From Escherichia phage MN04, in sequence record MT129654.1: 64,000 bases of DNA; one strand, given 5' to 3'. A program made the position numbers and the translations under genes. Numbering within the stretch: position 1 is the stretch's first letter; each line of letters starts with the position of its first letter. The notes beneath the pieces are model-generated. The model was not told the DNA's origin, did not search any database, and was given only the letters and a program-made list of their open reading frames with translations. Shown here piece by piece: positions 4,755 through 57,558 of this stretch.

Positions 4755-4994
4755 ATGATTAAAGTAACTAAAGACCAATTTTATAAGTTGAAATTCGAGA
4801 CGGAATATATTATTAAGGTCAACCCAGACGATACAAATATCCGTGGCAAGGCTCATAAGGTCTTGCATTCACTTAAAGAGATTGAAAGTGATTTTATTGC
4901 AGTGCAAAAACTGATGGACGACAATATCTCTTCGGTTTATATTGAAGACTATACTGTTGGCCAAATCCGAGACCTTATGAGGTACGTTAAATGA
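4755..4994 (+). CDS. Hypothetical protein (dexA.1/dexA.2 position)
   Basis: 79-aa ORF from ATG 4755 with SD ggagg-like (tgaggaaaat) upstream; stop overlaps dexA start. Confidence 0.4.
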   Translation: MIKVTKDQFYKLKFETEYIIKVNPDDTNIRGKAHKVLHSLKEIESDFIAVQKLMDDNISSVYIEDYTVGQIRDLMRYVK

Positions 4995-5665
4995 AAGATA
5001 TAATTATTGACTTCGAAACCTTTGCCACTACCCAAAATGCAGCAGTTATCGACCTCGCCGTAATTGCTTATGACCCTAATCCAGAGGTAGTAGAATCGTT
5101 TGAAGAGCTTACTCAACGCGGTCTTCGTATTAAATTTGATTTGGCTTCTCAACGCGATAAACGTCTGTTCTCTAAAAGCACATTGCAGTGGTGGAAAGAA
5201 CAAGGACCTGAAGCACGTAAAAACCTGGCTCCGTCCGAAATTGATGTGAGTACTTCTATCGGCATTGGTAATTTCCTGGAATACTGCCGTAAAAACGAAG
5301 TGGACCAATGGAAATCCCAGATGTGGTGCCGCGGAATGTCCTTTGACTTTCCGATCTTAGTCGACCTTATTCGTGATGCTTATCGTTCTGAAGGTGTTCC
5401 TGAGAACGAAATCGATACAACTAAGTTGGAACCGGTTAAATTCTGGAACCAACGTGATATCCGCACGGCCATTGAAGCCTATTCACTGACGCGTGGATTA
5501 AGCATGTGCCCTCTGCCTAACGGAACATTGAATGGCTTTGTAGCCCATGACTCTATCCATGACTGTGCTAAGGATATCTTGATGCTGAAATATGCCCAAC
5601 GATATGCTTTAAACCTGGAAGATGTTCCTGAGAATCCAGACCCATTAAGTGTAAAAAATCGATAA
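4991..5665 (+). CDS. dexA: Exonuclease A (DnaQ-like 3'-5' exonuclease)
   Basis: 224 aa; N-terminal MKDIIIDFETFATT exo motif I (D-x-E); size and position match T4 DexA. Confidence 0.85.
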   Translation: MKDIIIDFETFATTQNAAVIDLAVIAYDPNPEVVESFEELTQRGLRIKFDLASQRDKRLFSKSTLQWWKEQGPEARKNLAPSEIDVSTSIGIGNFLEYCRKNEVDQWKSQMWCRGMSFDFPILVDLIRDAYRSEGVPENEIDTTKLEPVKFWNQRDIRTAIEAYSLTRGLSMCPLPNGTLNGFVAHDSIHDCAKDILMLKYAQRYALNLEDVPENPDPLSVKNR

Positions 5666-5669
5666 AAGT

Positions 5670-5698
5670 GTTTACTTCTCCTCATGACATGATATTAT
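5670..5698 (+). promoter_or_regulatory. T4-type early promoter embedded in an 11-bp inverted repeat
   Basis: GTTTAC 5670-5675, TATTAT 5693-5698; arms ttctcctcatg (5676-5686) and catgaggagaa (5711-5721) bracket the -10 and the SD. Confidence 0.6.
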
Positions 5699-5725
5699 CT
5701 ACCCTATCAACATGAGGAGAACAAA

Positions 5726-6229
5726 ATGAAAATTTATCGAGTTGAGTCATCGTTCAGTATCTTAGATGATGGAAACGCTATCACAATACGACGAGACCTC
5801 TGTACTCAAATGACTCCGTATAGAAGTACAATGGACTCATGGAGTGAAGGCTGGTTATTGGAAGTAGGTTTCGACAGACCCAATTTTAAGCATCGTCATA
5901 CCATCAATAAAAATATTCCACTACCAAGTCAAGATAAGTTGCTGGTAGAAAATTCTAATAAAACCATTAGAACTAAGTGGAAACGGCCTGATTATGAAGA
6001 CTGTGATGATTATATTCCAGGTTGGTTTGTTAACCTCTACCATTTTGCTTTTGCCAGTGAGTATGATATGATGCGCTGGTTCACTCGTGAAGAGCGTAAA
6101 GAATTATCTTCTAAAGGATTCTATCTTGCCGTTTACGAAATACCTGAAGATGAGGTAGTCATTGGTGACCGCCAAGTAATGTTCCGCAAGTCCCATGCTG
6201 AACTCGTAGATTTTATTGAAATGAGATAA
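5726..6229 (+). CDS. Hypothetical early protein (MotB position by synteny)
   Basis: 167 aa, similar size to T4 MotB (162 aa); position dexA -> motB; no motif evidence. Confidence 0.4.
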   Translation: MKIYRVESSFSILDDGNAITIRRDLCTQMTPYRSTMDSWSEGWLLEVGFDRPNFKHRHTINKNIPLPSQDKLLVENSNKTIRTKWKRPDYEDCDDYIPGWFVNLYHFAFASEYDMMRWFTREERKELSSKGFYLAVYEIPEDEVVIGDRQVMFRKSHAELVDFIEMR

Positions 6230-6231
6230 TT

Positions 6232-6783
6232 ATGAAATTTAATTATAATCCCAAATACACACCGAACCCGGCGGCCAAATTGATTGATTTTGATGTTTTA
6301 AGCACTTATGCAGCCCCTATTGAACCATTAGAAATTAAGGAAACCACTATGACTACTCAGACTATCGAAATCGGTAAAACCTACAAACTGGTTGAACCTG
6401 AAATTAAAACTAAGGCCTTGATTTCTGGTTATAAAACTCTGACTGATGTTTTTGGCGAAGGCGAATTTATTGTTGAAGAATTCGCTAAAAGTGAGTGGTT
6501 TGACAAATCTTACGTCATCCACGGTCGCCGGTTAGATAATAACAAAATAGAGAAAAACCTGGTTTATGAAGATGAATTTGGGCTTTTCCGTGAAGTCGGA
6601 GTCGAACAAGACCCTACAGACCTGTTGTGTGCTGCTGTGGCTATCCGTCGTCCTTTTGATAATCCTATCTGTGGTTGGGTAACAGACCAGTGGATTGAAG
6701 ATGGTGTTGAACTCCTGAACGTTGTACATGCTGGTGATTTTAGCGTAGTACCTCGTAGTGCAGTGGTTAATGTATTGAATTAA
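6232..6783 (+). CDS. Hypothetical protein, paralog A of a tandem pair
   Basis: 183 aa; C-terminal block GWVTDQWIEDGVELLNVVHAGDFSVVP shared with the next ORF. Confidence 0.5.
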   Translation: MKFNYNPKYTPNPAAKLIDFDVLSTYAAPIEPLEIKETTMTTQTIEIGKTYKLVEPEIKTKALISGYKTLTDVFGEGEFIVEEFAKSEWFDKSYVIHGRRLDNNKIEKNLVYEDEFGLFREVGVEQDPTDLLCAAVAIRRPFDNPICGWVTDQWIEDGVELLNVVHAGDFSVVPRSAVVNVLN

Positions 6784-6785
6784 TA

Positions 6786-6814
6786 GTTTACTTTATCGAG
6801 AGCCATGTTATAAT
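6786..6814 (+). promoter_or_regulatory. T4-type early promoter with palindrome across the -10
   Basis: GTTTAC 6786-6791, TATAAT 6809-6814 centred in agagccatgttataatggctct. Confidence 0.6.
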
Positions 6815-6856
6815 GGCTCTTATGGATTATAATCCTTTAACCAAGAGAGAAAAATT

Positions 6857-7408
6857 ATGATTACTATCGGTGAAATTGTTCGTGTATCCAAAGAATCTCG
6901 CTCAAAAGCCGCAGGTCGTTTTGTTGAAGTTGCAGGTATTCGTACCAATTTAGTAGGTGGAATTAAAGAAGTTAAAGTGCGTATTATTCCTAAAAATGGC
7001 CAGACCGAAACCGAATTTGCTTATGTTCGCCCTAAATTTTTAAAATCGACTGAATTTACCGGATACATCGCTCCTGTAGTTGAAGAAGTTGAATCCCATG
7101 ATGGGTATGTATGTGAAAGCAATGATATTCGCGGCGTAGTAGCTCAAGACGTTGAAACTATTGACCAATCTCATGTCGGCGTTGATTTCAAATGGAAATT
7201 AGGTCGAGGAGTGTGTTTTAATACTCCTAAACCGTTCAAATATGTTGACGAACCTTTTGGTACTTACGAAACCAGTAGCATGTCTGGTTACATCACAGAC
7301 CAGTGGGTTGAAGGTGGCGTTAAGCTCTATAACATCGTGTTCCTTGGAACCTTTAAGGTTGTTCCTGAAAGCTTTATTGTTGAATATGCTAACATTCACC
7401 GTGCATAA
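6857..7408 (+). CDS. Hypothetical protein, paralog B of a tandem pair
   Basis: 183 aa; C-terminal block GYITDQWVEGGVKLYNIVFLGTFKVVP matches preceding ORF. Confidence 0.5.
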   Translation: MITIGEIVRVSKESRSKAAGRFVEVAGIRTNLVGGIKEVKVRIIPKNGQTETEFAYVRPKFLKSTEFTGYIAPVVEEVESHDGYVCESNDIRGVVAQDVETIDQSHVGVDFKWKLGRGVCFNTPKPFKYVDEPFGTYETSSMSGYITDQWVEGGVKLYNIVFLGTFKVVPESFIVEYANIHRA

Positions 7409-15699: not shown

Positions 15700-15730
15700 C
15701 TTCCTATCAACTACATGAGAGGAAAACAAA

Positions 15731-16081: not shown

Positions 16082-16110
16082 GTATACATCTCCATTAGAC
16101 ATGATATTAT
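16082..16110 (+). promoter_or_regulatory. Early promoter variant (GTATAC -35) embedded in an 11-bp inverted repeat
   Basis: GTATAC 16082-16087, TATTAT 16105-16110; arms atctccattag (16088-16098) / ctaatggagat (16122-16132). Confidence 0.5.
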
Positions 16111-16130
16111 AGACCTATCAACTAATGGAG

Positions 16131-16247
16131 ATGATTATGAAAAACTTACTTAAAGCAATTTGGAACATGTTTGTGTTATTGGTTGTATTGAGCATTTTCC
16201 CAATAGTTTTTATGATTGACCATGTACGTGTATTCTTTAACTTCTGA
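16131..16247 (+). CDS. Hypothetical small hydrophobic peptide
   Basis: 38-aa ORF (MIMKNLLKAIWNMFVLLVVLSIFPIVFMIDH...), predicted single TM helix. Confidence 0.3.
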   Translation: MIMKNLLKAIWNMFVLLVVLSIFPIVFMIDHVRVFFNF

Positions 16248-16659: not shown

Positions 16660-17004
16660 ATGTCTAAAGTATTTTTTGGTAATTCTAAAGTTATGTTCTT
16701 TGAGCAACTCAGTCTTAAAGAGGCATTGGCAGCCTTCAATCAAGAACTGGTTACTGGGTTAGATTCAAAAACTATGGCAAGTGCGGATTTCGTTTTCGTT
16801 CAAGACCCGGATACAGGGTTTTATCGATTCATCAAATTCCGTATGAGCATGGACCCTGACTATCGTAGTGCTTACTATGTGAGTTACGAAAATGTTATCG
16901 AAGAATTACGTGATACCTATGGACGTGCTTTGAACCCACTGAATAAGGTTTATAATGCGTCCTTTTATACGAGCGGATTTATTTTAGAACAGCTACAAAA
17001 ATAG
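16660..17004 (+). CDS. Hypothetical protein
   Basis: 114-aa ORF preceded by ttgaggaaaatattatg. Confidence 0.4.
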   Translation: MSKVFFGNSKVMFFEQLSLKEALAAFNQELVTGLDSKTMASADFVFVQDPDTGFYRFIKFRMSMDPDYRSAYYVSYENVIEELRDTYGRALNPLNKVYNASFYTSGFILEQLQK

Positions 17005-17032
17005 TTTACAACCTCGAGAATCATGTTATAAT
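17004..17032 (+). promoter_or_regulatory. T4-type early promoter
   Basis: GTTTAC 17004-17009, TATAAT 17027-17032 within near-palindrome cgagaatcatgttataatggttctcg. Confidence 0.6.
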
Positions 17033-17081
17033 GGTTCTCGTTGACTGGATAACAAAACATTAATCTACTGAGGAAATTGAT

Positions 17082-36580: not shown

Positions 36581-36609
36581 AGTCCTATCAACTACATGAG
36601 GAAATAAAA

Positions 36610-37631: not shown

Positions 37632-37660
37632 GTTTACAAGGTCTATAGGCATGATACTAT
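37632..37660 (+). promoter_or_regulatory. T4-type early promoter
   Basis: GTTTAC 37632-37637, TACTAT 37655-37660, flanked by palindrome aggtctatag / ctatagacct. Confidence 0.6.
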
Positions 37661-37692
37661 AGACCTATCAACTAACGAGTGAGGAAAATAAA

Positions 37693-44770: not shown

Positions 44771-45915
44771 TTGAATTATATGATAACTTGATGACTTTGG
44801 TTAAAAACTCGACTAAATCTAAGTTCTTCTTTAAAGACTTCCAGAGTGCTCTAGGAGTCAACTATCGCATCTTTAGTTATAACTATGCATCGTACAGCGA
44901 TTGGTTGGAAGACGGCGCGCTAGAGTGCCGAGGCATTATGTTTGAAATGGACGAGAACGGTCCTGTACGTATCGCTGCTCGTCCTATGCAAAAGTTCTTT
45001 AATCTCGATGAAAATCCATTGACTATTGGTTTGGATTTATCACAAGAAAATATCGACCTCGTAATGGCTAAGGAAGATGGTTCCTTGATTTCTACTTTCA
45101 TGGACAGACAATATCTTTCTGTTAAATCTAAAGGCTCTATCCATTCGTCGATGGTACATGATTCTTTACGTTTCCTTCGACTCCCTGAAAACGAGGCCTT
45201 CGCTGCTCGTTTAGAAGAAATTACTAAAGCAGGCTATACATGTAACCTCGAGTATGTTTCGCCTACTAACCGTATTGTGCTGGCTTACCAAGAAACAAAC
45301 CTTATCTTACTGAACGTTCGTAATAACGAAACGGGTGAGTATATCCCTTACGCTGAACTGTTTAAAGATGGCGCTCTGCGTAAGCATTTGGTTAAAAGCT
45401 ATGAACTCGCCGAAGGTGATTTTGTTGACAATATCCGTAAACAAGAGGGTATTGAAGGCTTTATCTTTGTACTTAAAGATGGCACGTTCTTTAAACTCAA
45501 AACCGCTTGGTATAGCGCACTGCATCATACCAAAGATTCCATTAACAATAACGAACGTTTATTTGAAGTTGTAGTGGCTGGTGGAACCGATGACCTCCGA
45601 GGTTTGTTCAGCACTGATTCATTTGCTATCGAGAAAATCAATGCATTTGAACGTACCCATTTAGACTACTTAGAACAGTCCTTGGCTTTGTTAGAAGCAG
45701 CATATTCCCAGCTCAAAGGCCGCGACCGTAAAGACTACGCTGTTACTGGTCAGTTAATCCTCAAAGACTTCCCAGGGCTGTTCTCTATTCTTATGCAGGC
45801 GTACGTAGACGGTATTAATTATGATACGGTCGTGGACCAGATTAACTCTGTGTTCTTGAAAAATCATAAGGCCCAAATCCCTGAAAAATATTTGAAAGAA
45901 ATTGTAATAGAGTAG
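44767..45915 (+). CDS. rnlA: RNA ligase 1
   Basis: 382 aa; YRIFSYNYASYSDW, adenylation site KEDGSL; matches T4 gp63 as remembered. Confidence 0.9.
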   Translation: MIELYDNLMTLVKNSTKSKFFFKDFQSALGVNYRIFSYNYASYSDWLEDGALECRGIMFEMDENGPVRIAARPMQKFFNLDENPLTIGLDLSQENIDLVMAKEDGSLISTFMDRQYLSVKSKGSIHSSMVHDSLRFLRLPENEAFAARLEEITKAGYTCNLEYVSPTNRIVLAYQETNLILLNVRNNETGEYIPYAELFKDGALRKHLVKSYELAEGDFVDNIRKQEGIEGFIFVLKDGTFFKLKTAWYSALHHTKDSINNNERLFEVVVAGGTDDLRGLFSTDSFAIEKINAFERTHLDYLEQSLALLEAAYSQLKGRDRKDYAVTGQLILKDFPGLFSILMQAYVDGINYDTVVDQINSVFLKNHKAQIPEKYLKEIVIE

Positions 45916-45943
45916 TTTACATCTCCTCATGATGTGTTAGTAT
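45915..45943 (+). promoter_or_regulatory. T4-type early promoter embedded in a 9-bp inverted repeat
   Basis: GTTTAC 45915-45920, TAGTAT 45938-45943; arms tctcctcat (45922-45930) / atgaggaga (45958-45966). Confidence 0.55.
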
Positions 45944-45973
45944 AGACTTACCAACTAATGAGGAGAAAACAAA

Positions 45974-46474
45974 ATGAATATGCAAATGATTACCAACGAA
46001 ATGGTTGTTAAAGCTTTTGGTGACTCTACTGACGGTATCCAAGTTTTTAAAGGTTCTCGTGCAGTAGGTTATCTAACCGATCTTCGTGTTACTTTAGCTA
46101 AAAATGCTAAAAAGAAAATTAAGCAAAAAGAATACTCTACCCGTTATGCAGAAGAAAAGCGTGAAGCCATGCCCGAAGCTGTTAACTCTATGGTTGAGTT
46201 TCTCCAAAACAACCTTTCTAAGTATGATGCTGAGGTATTCATTAATATTAGCCAACCTAATGTCAAAATCGCAGGAATCACTTTCTATTTGATTTGCGAC
46301 CCATTAAGCGATAAGTTTAATCGCCTTGGCATTTCGAGCCCTTACCATACCGCTGAAGAATTGTGCGTGATGTTCGAAACGTATAAAATCCAGTGTGAAA
46401 ACCCTAAAACGGTTCTTATCAACTCCCTGTCACGTGATGACATCATCGAGATTATTACTAAATGTCTAAATTAA
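45974..46474 (+). CDS. Hypothetical protein (Alc position by synteny; T4 Alc is 167 aa)
   Basis: 166-aa ORF immediately downstream of rnlA. Confidence 0.45.
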   Translation: MNMQMITNEMVVKAFGDSTDGIQVFKGSRAVGYLTDLRVTLAKNAKKKIKQKEYSTRYAEEKREAMPEAVNSMVEFLQNNLSKYDAEVFINISQPNVKIAGITFYLICDPLSDKFNRLGISSPYHTAEELCVMFETYKIQCENPKTVLINSLSRDDIIEIITKCLN

Positions 46475-47205: not shown

Positions 47206-47235
47206 GTTTACAAACTCTTGGGAGCAGAGTATAAT
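47206..47235 (+). promoter_or_regulatory. T4-type early promoter
   Basis: GTTTAC 47206-47211, 18-nt spacer, TATAAT 47230-47235. Confidence 0.55.
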
Positions 47236-47269
47236 GCTCCTACGGATTATAAAAATTGAGGAAATTATT

Positions 47270-49646: not shown

Positions 49647-49676
49647 GTTTACATCATGGTAGGACTGTGGTATAGT
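49647..49676 (+). promoter_or_regulatory. T4-type early promoter
   Basis: GTTTAC 49647-49652, TATAGT 49671-49676, palindrome ggtaggact / agtcctacc. Confidence 0.55.
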
Positions 49677-49706
49677 AGTCCTACCGAAACAAATGAGGAA
49701 ATCGAA

Positions 49707-53321: not shown

Positions 53322-53350
53322 TTTTACTTTGGTACAGGTTGTGTTATTAT
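53322..53350 (+). promoter_or_regulatory. T4-type early promoter with palindrome across the -10
   Basis: TTTTAC 53322-53327, TATTAT 53345-53350 inside ggtacaggt ... acctgtacc. Confidence 0.5.
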
Positions 53351-53391
53351 AGACCTGTACCAAATAATACGAAAACAAACTGGAGAATAAA

Positions 53392-57369: not shown

Positions 57370-57540
57370 ATGAAAGCTTATTTAGAAACAATTGTTGTAA
57401 CAAACGCAAATAACACTGCGGCCTCTCAAATCATCCTAGAGTTTGAGGATGAAATAGCTTTTGCCGATTTTAAAGACGTGTTTGACGGCTATGAAAAAGG
57501 CCCGACATTCGAAGTATATCGTACGTTGCTACCACTTTAA
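57370..57540 (+). CDS. Hypothetical small protein
   Basis: 56-aa ORF from ATG 57370. Confidence 0.3.
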   Translation: MKAYLETIVVTNANNTAASQIILEFEDEIAFADFKDVFDGYEKGPTFEVYRTLLPL

Positions 57541-57558
57541 GGCCTTCGGGCCTTTTAT
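57539..57558 (+). terminator. Rho-independent terminator
   Basis: aaggccttcgggcctt hairpin followed by ttat. Confidence 0.6.

Follow-up and report, generated by a model that had tools for sequence, protein, structure and literature searches.

The motB.2 locus of phage MN04

The stretch analysed, hereafter the window, comprises 64,000 nucleotides (nt) of Escherichia phage MN04 (MT129654.1), a Dhakavirus (JS98-like) with 96% identity to phage dhabil and 94% to JS98. The element under study lies between dexA and the homologue of T4 motB.2. It consists of an early promoter nested in an inverted repeat, the downstream arm of which contains the Shine-Dalgarno (SD) sequence of motB.2. The repeat and its hairpin are real, non-random and conserved, and they appear to make access to the motB.2 start dependent on the promoter from which the RNA was begun.

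The features of the locus and of related elements are listed in Table 1. The stop codon of dexA (TAA, 5663-5665) ends 10 nt before the 5' arm of the hairpin. The 60-nt spacer between dexA and motB.2 (5666-5725) holds the promoter and the SD together, and the A-rich stretch upstream of them begins inside the 3' end of dexA. No terminator-like site was found on the + strand between 2301 and 5670 in a terminator scan, from which dexA transcripts are predicted to read through into the promoter-hairpin element. The MN04 motB.2 protein matches phrog_1106 (a family of unknown function). A Pfam search with it gave no domain match, and a PDB profile search with MotB.2 returned only non-significant matches to AsiA (E ~0.6).

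An earlier note on this DNA had labelled the downstream open reading frame (ORF) as the motB-position gene. The ORF is the motB.2 homologue, and its assignment as motB was rejected: the Pfam motB domain matches 6857-7408 and weakly 6232-6783, not 5726-6229. The true motB (6857-7408; PF17613, E = 1e-50) lies two genes downstream of motB.2.

Table 1. Positions in the window of the motB.2 element, its flanking genes and related elements (long, read-through leader; short, leader from the predicted start; opening costs in kcal/mol)
Feature	Position	Strand	Description
dexA (exonuclease A)	4991-5665	+	Matches Pfam PF16473 and phrog_255 exonuclease; homologue annotated dexA in JS98 and T4
A-rich stretch TTAAGTGTAAAAAATCGATAAAAGT	5645-5669	+	Upstream of the -35; conserved in the alignment of relatives
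Possible outer helix strand AAATCGATAAA	5656-5666	+	dexA end and stop; pairs with TTTATCGAGTT at 5733-5743 (motB.2 codons 3-6)
-35 GTTTAC	5670-5675	+	T4-type early promoter; GUUU in read-through RNA pairs with AAAU 5724-5727 in the fold
5' arm (anti-SD) TTCTCCTCATG	5676-5686	+	In the promoter spacer; only in transcripts begun upstream
24-nt loop	5687-5710	+	Holds TG, -10, predicted start (~5705) and a 5-bp inner helix (5690-5694 with 5705-5709)
3' arm CATGAGGAGAA	5711-5721	+	Contains the SD GAGGAG (5714-5719)
RegB-like site GGAGAACAAAA	5716-5726	+	10 of 11 positions of the T4 RegB consensus GGAGAAUAAAA; C at position 7
motB.2 homologue (putatively regulated gene)	5726-6229	+	167 amino acids; 70% amino acid identity to T4 MotB.2; annotated motB.2 in JS98
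modB-type gene	993-1562 (element 940-995)		GTTTAC-N17-TATAAT, then GACCTC...GGAGGTCATATG; 5' arm directly after the -10; opening 17.6 long vs 3.4 short
36-amino-acid hydrophobic ORF	16137-16247 (cassette 16082-16247)		GTATAC-N17-TATTAT; perfect 12-bp repeat CATCTCCATTAG (16087-16098) / CTAATGGAGATG (16122-16133)
alc leader	45915-45976		Arms TCTCCTCAT / ATGAGGAGA, nearly those of motB.2; same AACAAAATG tail; opening 11.1 long vs 0.9 short
-10-enclosing hairpins	6798-6821, 17004-17045, 37639-37666, 47216-47246, 49657-49686, 53328-53364		Spacer paired with the sequence just after the -10
CTATCAAC copies	1595-1602, 2335-2342, 5704-5711, 15703-15710, 16115-16122, 36584-36591, 37664-37671		

Architecture of the promoter and the inverted repeat

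Positions 5641-5730 have the sequence ...aaaagtGTTTACttctcctcatgacaTGaTATTATctaccctatcaacatGAGGAGaacaaaATG. In T4 notation, the promoter consists of GTTTAC, a 17-base-pair (bp) spacer and TATTAT (5693-5698). The consensus scan calls it as the promoter-like site TTTACT-16-TATTAT with TG ahead of the -10, and the -10 is of the extended type (TG at 5690-5691). The traits of a T4-type early promoter (GTTTAC, a 17-18-bp spacer, TAnnnT with TGn, and A-rich upstream sequence) are all present at 5670-5698, and the A-rich stretch resembles the UP-like region typical of such promoters. No late promoter (TATAAATA) was found near 5670-5726. Transcription is predicted to start at about 5705, the seventh nt after the -10.

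The SD lies 6 nt ahead of the ATG. A script check found TTCTCCTCATG and CATGAGGAGAA to be exact reverse complements, and a repeat search extended the pair to 16 nt at 88% (5671-5686 / 5711-5726). As the earlier note had described, the arms are perfect complements, the upstream arm occupies the promoter spacer between the two hexamers, and the downstream arm contains the SD; all of its coordinates proved correct. The 3' flank of the stem is A-rich (AACAAAAUGAAAA; CAAAAUGAAAAUU). An intrinsic terminator was rejected here, since no U-tract follows the stem and the site is absent from the terminator scan. The Rfam 15 covariance models gave no match to 5400-6000 at E <= 1.

Beyond the main stem, the strands 5656-5666 and 5733-5743 are 91% complementary over 11 nt. 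They may form an outer helix, or the complementarity may be a coincidence of coding constraints, which alone could explain it. T4 keeps this outer complementarity by a two-sided change (MN04 TCGATAAA/TTTATCGA vs T4 ACGATAAA/TTTATCGT).

Predicted folding of long and short leaders

All energies are nearest-neighbour estimates at 37 C. The opening cost is the free energy required to make 5713-5728 (SD through AUG) single-stranded, calculated from partition functions. The read-through hairpin folds at -18.2 to -19.5 kcal/mol and persists in 121- and 150-nt contexts. Shuffled versions of the 46-nt hairpin (-18.2 kcal/mol) had a mean of -5.9 kcal/mol, and none of 200 was as stable (z = -5.0); for the segment from the -35 to the ATG, z was -6.8. 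The whole window contains 6 perfect 11-mer inverted repeats (at 4 loci) with a loop of 3-40 nt, as against 1.0 +/- 1.3 in Markov-1 simulations.

With 86, 166 or 266 nt of upstream sequence, opening of the region from SD to AUG costs 19.5 kcal/mol, and with an RNA beginning exactly at the 5' arm 16-18 kcal/mol. Short leaders starting at 5703, 5705 or 5707 require 3.8-4.7 kcal/mol. The gap of ~15 kcal/mol between long and short leaders is independent of the exact start, because any start after 5687 removes the 5' arm. The earlier note had proposed that transcripts from about 5705 lack the upstream arm and leave the SD free, that read-through RNA from dexA could fold to occlude it, and that folding of both leaders would be a check. 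The calculations agree on each point: a stable hairpin is predicted in the read-through RNA, with an opening cost of 19.5 vs about 4 kcal/mol in the short RNA.

The opening cost of motB.2 ranks first among the 93 gene starts of the window (median 5.0 and 90th percentile 9.2 kcal/mol). By the same measure, the classical hairpin of JS98 gene e, with its nested late promoter, costs 12.3 kcal/mol in the long and 5.7 in the short form; the motB.2 element is thus predicted to be stronger than the established gene e hairpin of the same genus. The dexA stop codon lies 10 nt before the 5' arm, and therefore a terminating ribosome should not melt the stem, judging from the size of the ribosome footprint.

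Conservation and co-evolution of the arms

The motB.2 loci were gathered from GenBank phages, IMG/VR and metagenomes, and gave 25 unique 73-nt leaders of about 7 types; the IMG/VR and metagenome scans contributed few further lineages. The -35 is near-invariant, being GTTTAC in 32 of the 35 distinct motB.2 leader contexts. The arms are UUCUCCUCAUG / CAUGAGGAGAA in Dhakavirus (as in the window), and UCCUCGGU(U)AGUUGUGGU / ACCAUAGCUACUGAGGA in Tequatrovirus including T4, where an 8-nt loop contains the -10 and the fold reaches -27 kcal/mol within 92 nt of context. In Mosigvirus (RB69) they are UUCUCCUCUGGU..UGAUAU / AUAUCAACCAGAGGAGAA (-27.8 kcal/mol). In the Kanagawavirus-type leaders (UAUGAUGACCUC / GAGGUCAUCAUG), the -10 hexamer pairs with the start-codon region, and the GACCUC after it pairs with the SD.

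The stem sequences differ between these four lineages. In all four, the 3' arm comprises the SD, alone or with the AUG, and the SD pairs with promoter sequence upstream of the predicted start. Their opening costs are 11-20 kcal/mol in the long and 2-10 kcal/mol in the short leaders, and the distance from predicted start to ATG is 19-21 nt. RB69 has a motB paralogue in place of dexA ahead of motB.2, and therefore the promoter-hairpin module travels with motB.2. The Kanagawavirus-type leaders L017, L033-L035 and L054 have a -10 (TATGAT) complementary to AUCAUG including the start codon; one sequence would therefore serve as both promoter element and anti-start-codon arm.

The MAFFT alignment of the three T-even leader types set the T4 5' arm out of register; therefore, separate alignments and a duplex swap were used. 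When promoter segments and leaders were exchanged among lineages, the cognate pairs had a mean of -17.4 kcal/mol and the non-cognate pairs -9.5 kcal/mol, and the cognate assignment was the single best of 720 permutations. In the register-true alignments, 95% of the cells are paired for the Kanagawavirus-type and modB leaders and 90% for Dhakavirus and Mosigvirus. Sliding the 3' partner by 1-3 columns lowered these values to 28-61%. Double changes occur at 2 and 3 pairs per alignment (e.g. A-U vs U-A, U-A vs G-C, and A-U / C-G / G-C); they are supportive of co-evolution between the arms, not conclusive.

The strands differ in stability in several lineages. The sense hairpin is favoured over the antisense one in T4 motB.2 (-23.7 vs -12.4 kcal/mol), in the leaders L008 (-21.1 vs -7.2) and L038 (-17.0 vs -8.0), in T4 modB (-18.0 vs -10.1) and in T4 alc (-23.8 vs -14.3). 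The G.U pairs of T4, L008, L017, L034 and L038 stabilise the sense RNA hairpin only, which points to selection at the level of the mRNA and not of a palindrome in the DNA. The repeat of the MN04 window is perfect and thus equally stable on both strands.

Related cassettes in MN04 and T4

The + strand of the window has 18 early promoters of the GTTTAC type, each just upstream of a gene. The three highest of the 93 opening costs belong to motB.2, the gene of a ModB-type ADP-ribosyltransferase (start at 993) and alc (start at 45974), and all three hairpins are nested in early promoters. A further cassette precedes the 36-amino-acid ORF at 16137, which fell outside the scan of 93 starts because of its 50-amino-acid cut-off. 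Here the 12-bp repeat masks the SD, with an opening cost of 17.9 kcal/mol in the long and 1.8 in the short leader. The near-identical arms of motB.2 and alc within one genome suggest either exchange between cassettes or convergence.

In T4, the arms of alc and motB.2 differ from each other, and modB (14.9 kcal/mol) and alc (15.5 kcal/mol) have the same design with other stem sequences. The T4 modA, srd and modA.2 leaders were examined and lack the SD-masking design. At about six other early promoters of the window, a strong hairpin of the PeSL type (discussed below) encloses the -10 and leaves the SD untouched.

RegB and expression kinetics

The SD region of motB.2 also resembles a cleavage site of the endoribonuclease RegB. 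Such a site has GGAG or GGAU ahead of a C-free, A-rich heptamer (consensus GGAGAAUAAAA), and secondary structure inhibits the enzyme (Durand et al. 2006, PMC1702504). The GGAU of T4 motB.2 is one of only two intergenic GGAU sites that are cut by RegB in vivo (PMC1702504), and the SD of T4 motB.2 must therefore be sufficiently exposed in infected cells. According to the computed opening costs, the MN04 site is unstructured only on the short transcript. The regB gene is annotated in Dhakavirus JS98.

In T4 omics data, motB.2, modB and alc fall into the early-RNA / early-protein class (Wolfram-Schauerte et al. 2022, PMC9697503, supplementary files 4 and 6). Their upstream neighbours dexA (with dexA.1, dexA.2 and dda), modA.2 and rnlA are early as RNA but middle or late as protein (PMC9697503). 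These kinetics are compatible with gating that limits the hairpin genes to the first transcripts made, but they are not proof of it.

Proposed mechanism and alternative explanations

The motB.2 element is probably a cis-acting RNA switch, in which the translation initiation region would be masked or exposed according to the promoter used, and translation gated thereby. The strong sigma-70 early promoter (-35 at 5670, -10 at 5693) would start RNA at about 5705, inside the loop. The leaders of 20-21 nt would lack the 5' arm, so that the SD GAGGAG and the AUG would be open, and motB.2 would be translated in the first minutes of infection. These open transcripts would also expose the RegB-type site, the cleavage of which could end expression. 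Read-through RNA, started upstream and passing through dexA, would carry the promoter spacer as RNA, and the emerging SD would pair with the spacer at once, by 11 perfect pairs plus GUUU/AAAU reaching into the AUG. The 30S subunit, and probably RegB too, would be denied access, leaving motB.2 silent on the read-through RNA. The net effect would be to make MotB.2 synthesis depend on the firing of its own early promoter and to shield it from the longer-lived transcription upstream, with RegB accessibility as a linked consequence of the masking. The repeat, the promoter motifs, the fold energies and the conservation with compensatory change are observed here; where transcription starts, whether translation is blocked and what the hairpin is for are what we infer.

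Several observations weigh against this interpretation. The RB69-like alc hairpin encloses the -10 and stops short of the SD, and in the alc leaders L067, L069 and L071 of other T4-like phages the hairpin ends just before the SD (opening 1.6-4.5 kcal/mol). SD masking is therefore not indispensable and seems to have been gained or lost among close relatives; since the RB69-like alc hairpin is of the -10-enclosing kind, the two hairpin designs appear to interconvert in evolution. Two motB.2 lineages show no occlusion (the Nanhuvirus type, 3.1 kcal/mol, and L039, 5.7 kcal/mol), and the short leader of T4 proper still costs 9-10 kcal/mol to open. The C at position 7 of the MN04 RegB-like site is absent from every cleaved T4 site (PMC1702504). 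The independent lineages are few, and formal covariation is modest for this reason; the double changes are confined to 2-3 pairs per alignment, and the shuffle controls are not probabilities. In vivo, the block could be overcome by S1, by standby binding or by ribosomes upstream.

The alternative that survives best, though it is unlikely, comes from the promoter-early stem-loops (PeSLs) of T4-like phages: the hairpin would be a terminator or attenuator of dexA-derived transcription, or a 3'-end stabiliser, and its overlap with the SD would be incidental. According to Arbiol 2010 and Comeau 2014, T4-type early promoters often have stem-loops in or around the promoter, and one RB49 stem-loop cut lacZ expression like a strong terminator. 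The -10-enclosing hairpins of the window and the RB69-like alc hairpin, none of which reaches the SD, are also in line with this reading. However, a U-tract after the stem is lacking in every lineage, the A-rich flank and the terminator scan give no sign of a terminator, and the loop in MN04 is as long as 24 nt. Moreover, the 3' arm coincides with the SD or SD plus AUG in four genera, despite differing stems.

It is also quite unlikely that the hairpin is primarily a nuclease shield, which would hide the GGAG of long polycistronic RNAs from RegB. The dda-dexA messages would then survive, the short motB.2 RNAs would be destroyed, and the translation block would be a by-product. The fit of the SD region to 10 of the 11 consensus positions, the in vivo cleavage of the T4 motB.2 SD, the inhibition of RegB by structure (PMC1702504) and the presence of regB in JS98 would all suit such a shield, as would the accumulation of the T4 dexA and dda proteins with middle kinetics (PMC9697503). 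Against it, the sequence masked by the hairpins of the modB and Kanagawavirus types, GGAGGUCAU, has no A-rich RegB context; the shield is also compatible with promoter-choice-dependent masking and not exclusive of it.

A chance repeat or a DNA-level palindrome without RNA function (an operator for a dimeric protein, a cruciform or a recombination site) is very improbable and was rejected: the perfect MN04 repeat is equally stable on both strands and the almost identical motB.2 and alc arms could reflect recombination between cassettes, but arm sequences, positions and loop lengths vary among lineages and cassettes and leave no common operator, the G.U pairs favour the sense strand only, the motB.2 site ranks first of 93 in opening cost, and an 11-bp match between a 29-nt promoter segment and a 16-nt initiation region has a chance of ~3e-5 per promoter (a rough figure that ignores base composition).

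Promoter-choice-dependent masking at motB.2 might have a wider meaning. We tentatively suggest, as a possibility, that "early-only" translational gates form a class, conserved in the Tevenvirinae and not yet described, at some of the immediate-early genes; these would include the known host-takeover genes modB and alc as well as motB.2 and the small membrane ORF. In such genes the ribosome-binding site (RBS) would be complementary to the DNA of their own early promoter, and only promoter-proximal transcripts would be translated and RegB-cleavable. If true, later read-through RNAs would be silent for the early-gated genes. Together with early-promoter shut-off and RegB, this would explain why these proteins stop being made while neighbours on the same RNA stay expressed. 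The proposal bears on an old open point, the gene-by-gene shut-off of early protein synthesis. The motB.2 gate would link early promoters, RegB and read-through transcription. It also offers a reading of the unexplained PeSLs, and flags motB.2 and the 36-amino-acid ORF as genes whose dosage or timing may matter.

Neighbouring genes and other features of the window

The ORF at 6232-6783 (motB.1 in the JS98 naming) begins 3 nt past the motB.2 stop codon. It and the adjacent ORF at 6857-7408 each have 183 amino acids and a C-terminal MotB domain (PF17613, E = 2e-8 and 1e-50, respectively); therefore, the gene called motB.1 in JS98 is a motB paralogue here.

The sequence CTATCAAC recurs 5-6 nt past the -10 of many early promoters, at the predicted start (Table 1), where it may represent conservation of the initially transcribed region. 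Pairing is possible between its TATCA and the extended -10, which contains TGATA. Another perfect 11-nt inverted repeat (AAAAGGCCCGA), with a 40-nt loop, is located at 57495-57556 between two + strand genes.

Comparison with known systems

Phage T4 is the textbook case of translation gated by promoter choice. Hairpins that sequester the RBS and have nested late promoters are found at e, soc, 49, I-TevI and several homing endonucleases (Uzan and Miller 2010, PMC3014915), and the genes so regulated "are all late genes" (Edgell et al. 2010, PMC2988022). The motB.2 element shares the general layout with this class, which also includes segB and Aeh1 mobE. In both, the SD and/or AUG is paired on transcripts from distal promoters (at 19.5 kcal/mol in motB.2). 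In both, a promoter in or near the 5' arm yields shorter, hairpin-free transcripts that are translated in the T4 class and predicted to be so for motB.2; the predicted motB.2 start lies after the 5' arm, a placement conserved in four genera. The hairpin of JS98 gene e shows the same kind of contrast between long and short leaders.

The differences concern the promoter. The T4 class uses a late promoter (TATAAATA), which delays expression to late times, whereas the MN04 motB.2 promoter is a sigma-70 early promoter (GTTTAC-N17-TATTAT) and T4 motB.2 is early as both RNA and protein. Furthermore, the MN04 5' arm sits in the spacer between -35 and -10, not after the promoter. The likeness to some T4 genes that the earlier note had drawn thus holds for the promoter-gated hairpin layout, but not for the promoter type: the T4 precedents all have late promoters and are late genes, and motB.2 is therefore an early-promoter variant, not the same case. 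The early-promoter version would reverse the T4 logic, confining the protein to the first minutes of infection rather than postponing its synthesis. Its design is conserved from T4 to Dhakavirus, Mosigvirus and the Kanagawavirus type, and is common to modB and alc. Literature searches found no early-promoter precedent for an SD-masking hairpin, although an older mention cannot be excluded.

With regard to RegB sites, the MN04 SD has the GGAG followed by an A-rich heptamer in an early gene, and the SD of the T4 orthologue (GGAUAAUAAAA) is cut in vivo. However, RegB acts in trans and needs an unstructured site, whereas the MN04 hairpin, as part of the RNA, would act in cis and keep the site hidden in long transcripts.

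In the PeSL cassettes an early promoter is accompanied by a stem-loop that precedes it, lies inside it or covers it, and the stem-loops were interpreted as terminators or attenuators and as recombination sites (Arbiol 2010, Comeau 2014; PMC2839356, PMC4122927). The word "translation" does not occur in Arbiol 2010, and the text of Comeau 2014 that was consulted draws no link between stem-loop and SD. The motB.2 locus has the same components in one cassette, namely an AT-rich intergenic region, a TTTAC-type early promoter, a stem-loop with promoter sequence, an SD and a start codon, and similar copies are likewise repeated at different genes of one genome. The PeSL stem-loops are compact and occupy one of three places: ahead of the promoter, the interval from -35 to -10, or the -10 itself. 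In MN04, by contrast, the SD itself forms the 3' arm, at a distance of 25 nt downstream, and the PeSL position is matched by the 5-bp inner helix alone. No terminator or attenuator trait was found at motB.2 in the sequence, there being neither a U-tract nor a terminator-scan match. Strict membership was rejected, since the terminator features do not fit and the position of the stem-loop does so only in part. On its sequence features, the motB.2 element is best filed as a putative early-promoter variant of the T4 promoter-gated hairpin, which overlaps the PeSL concept.

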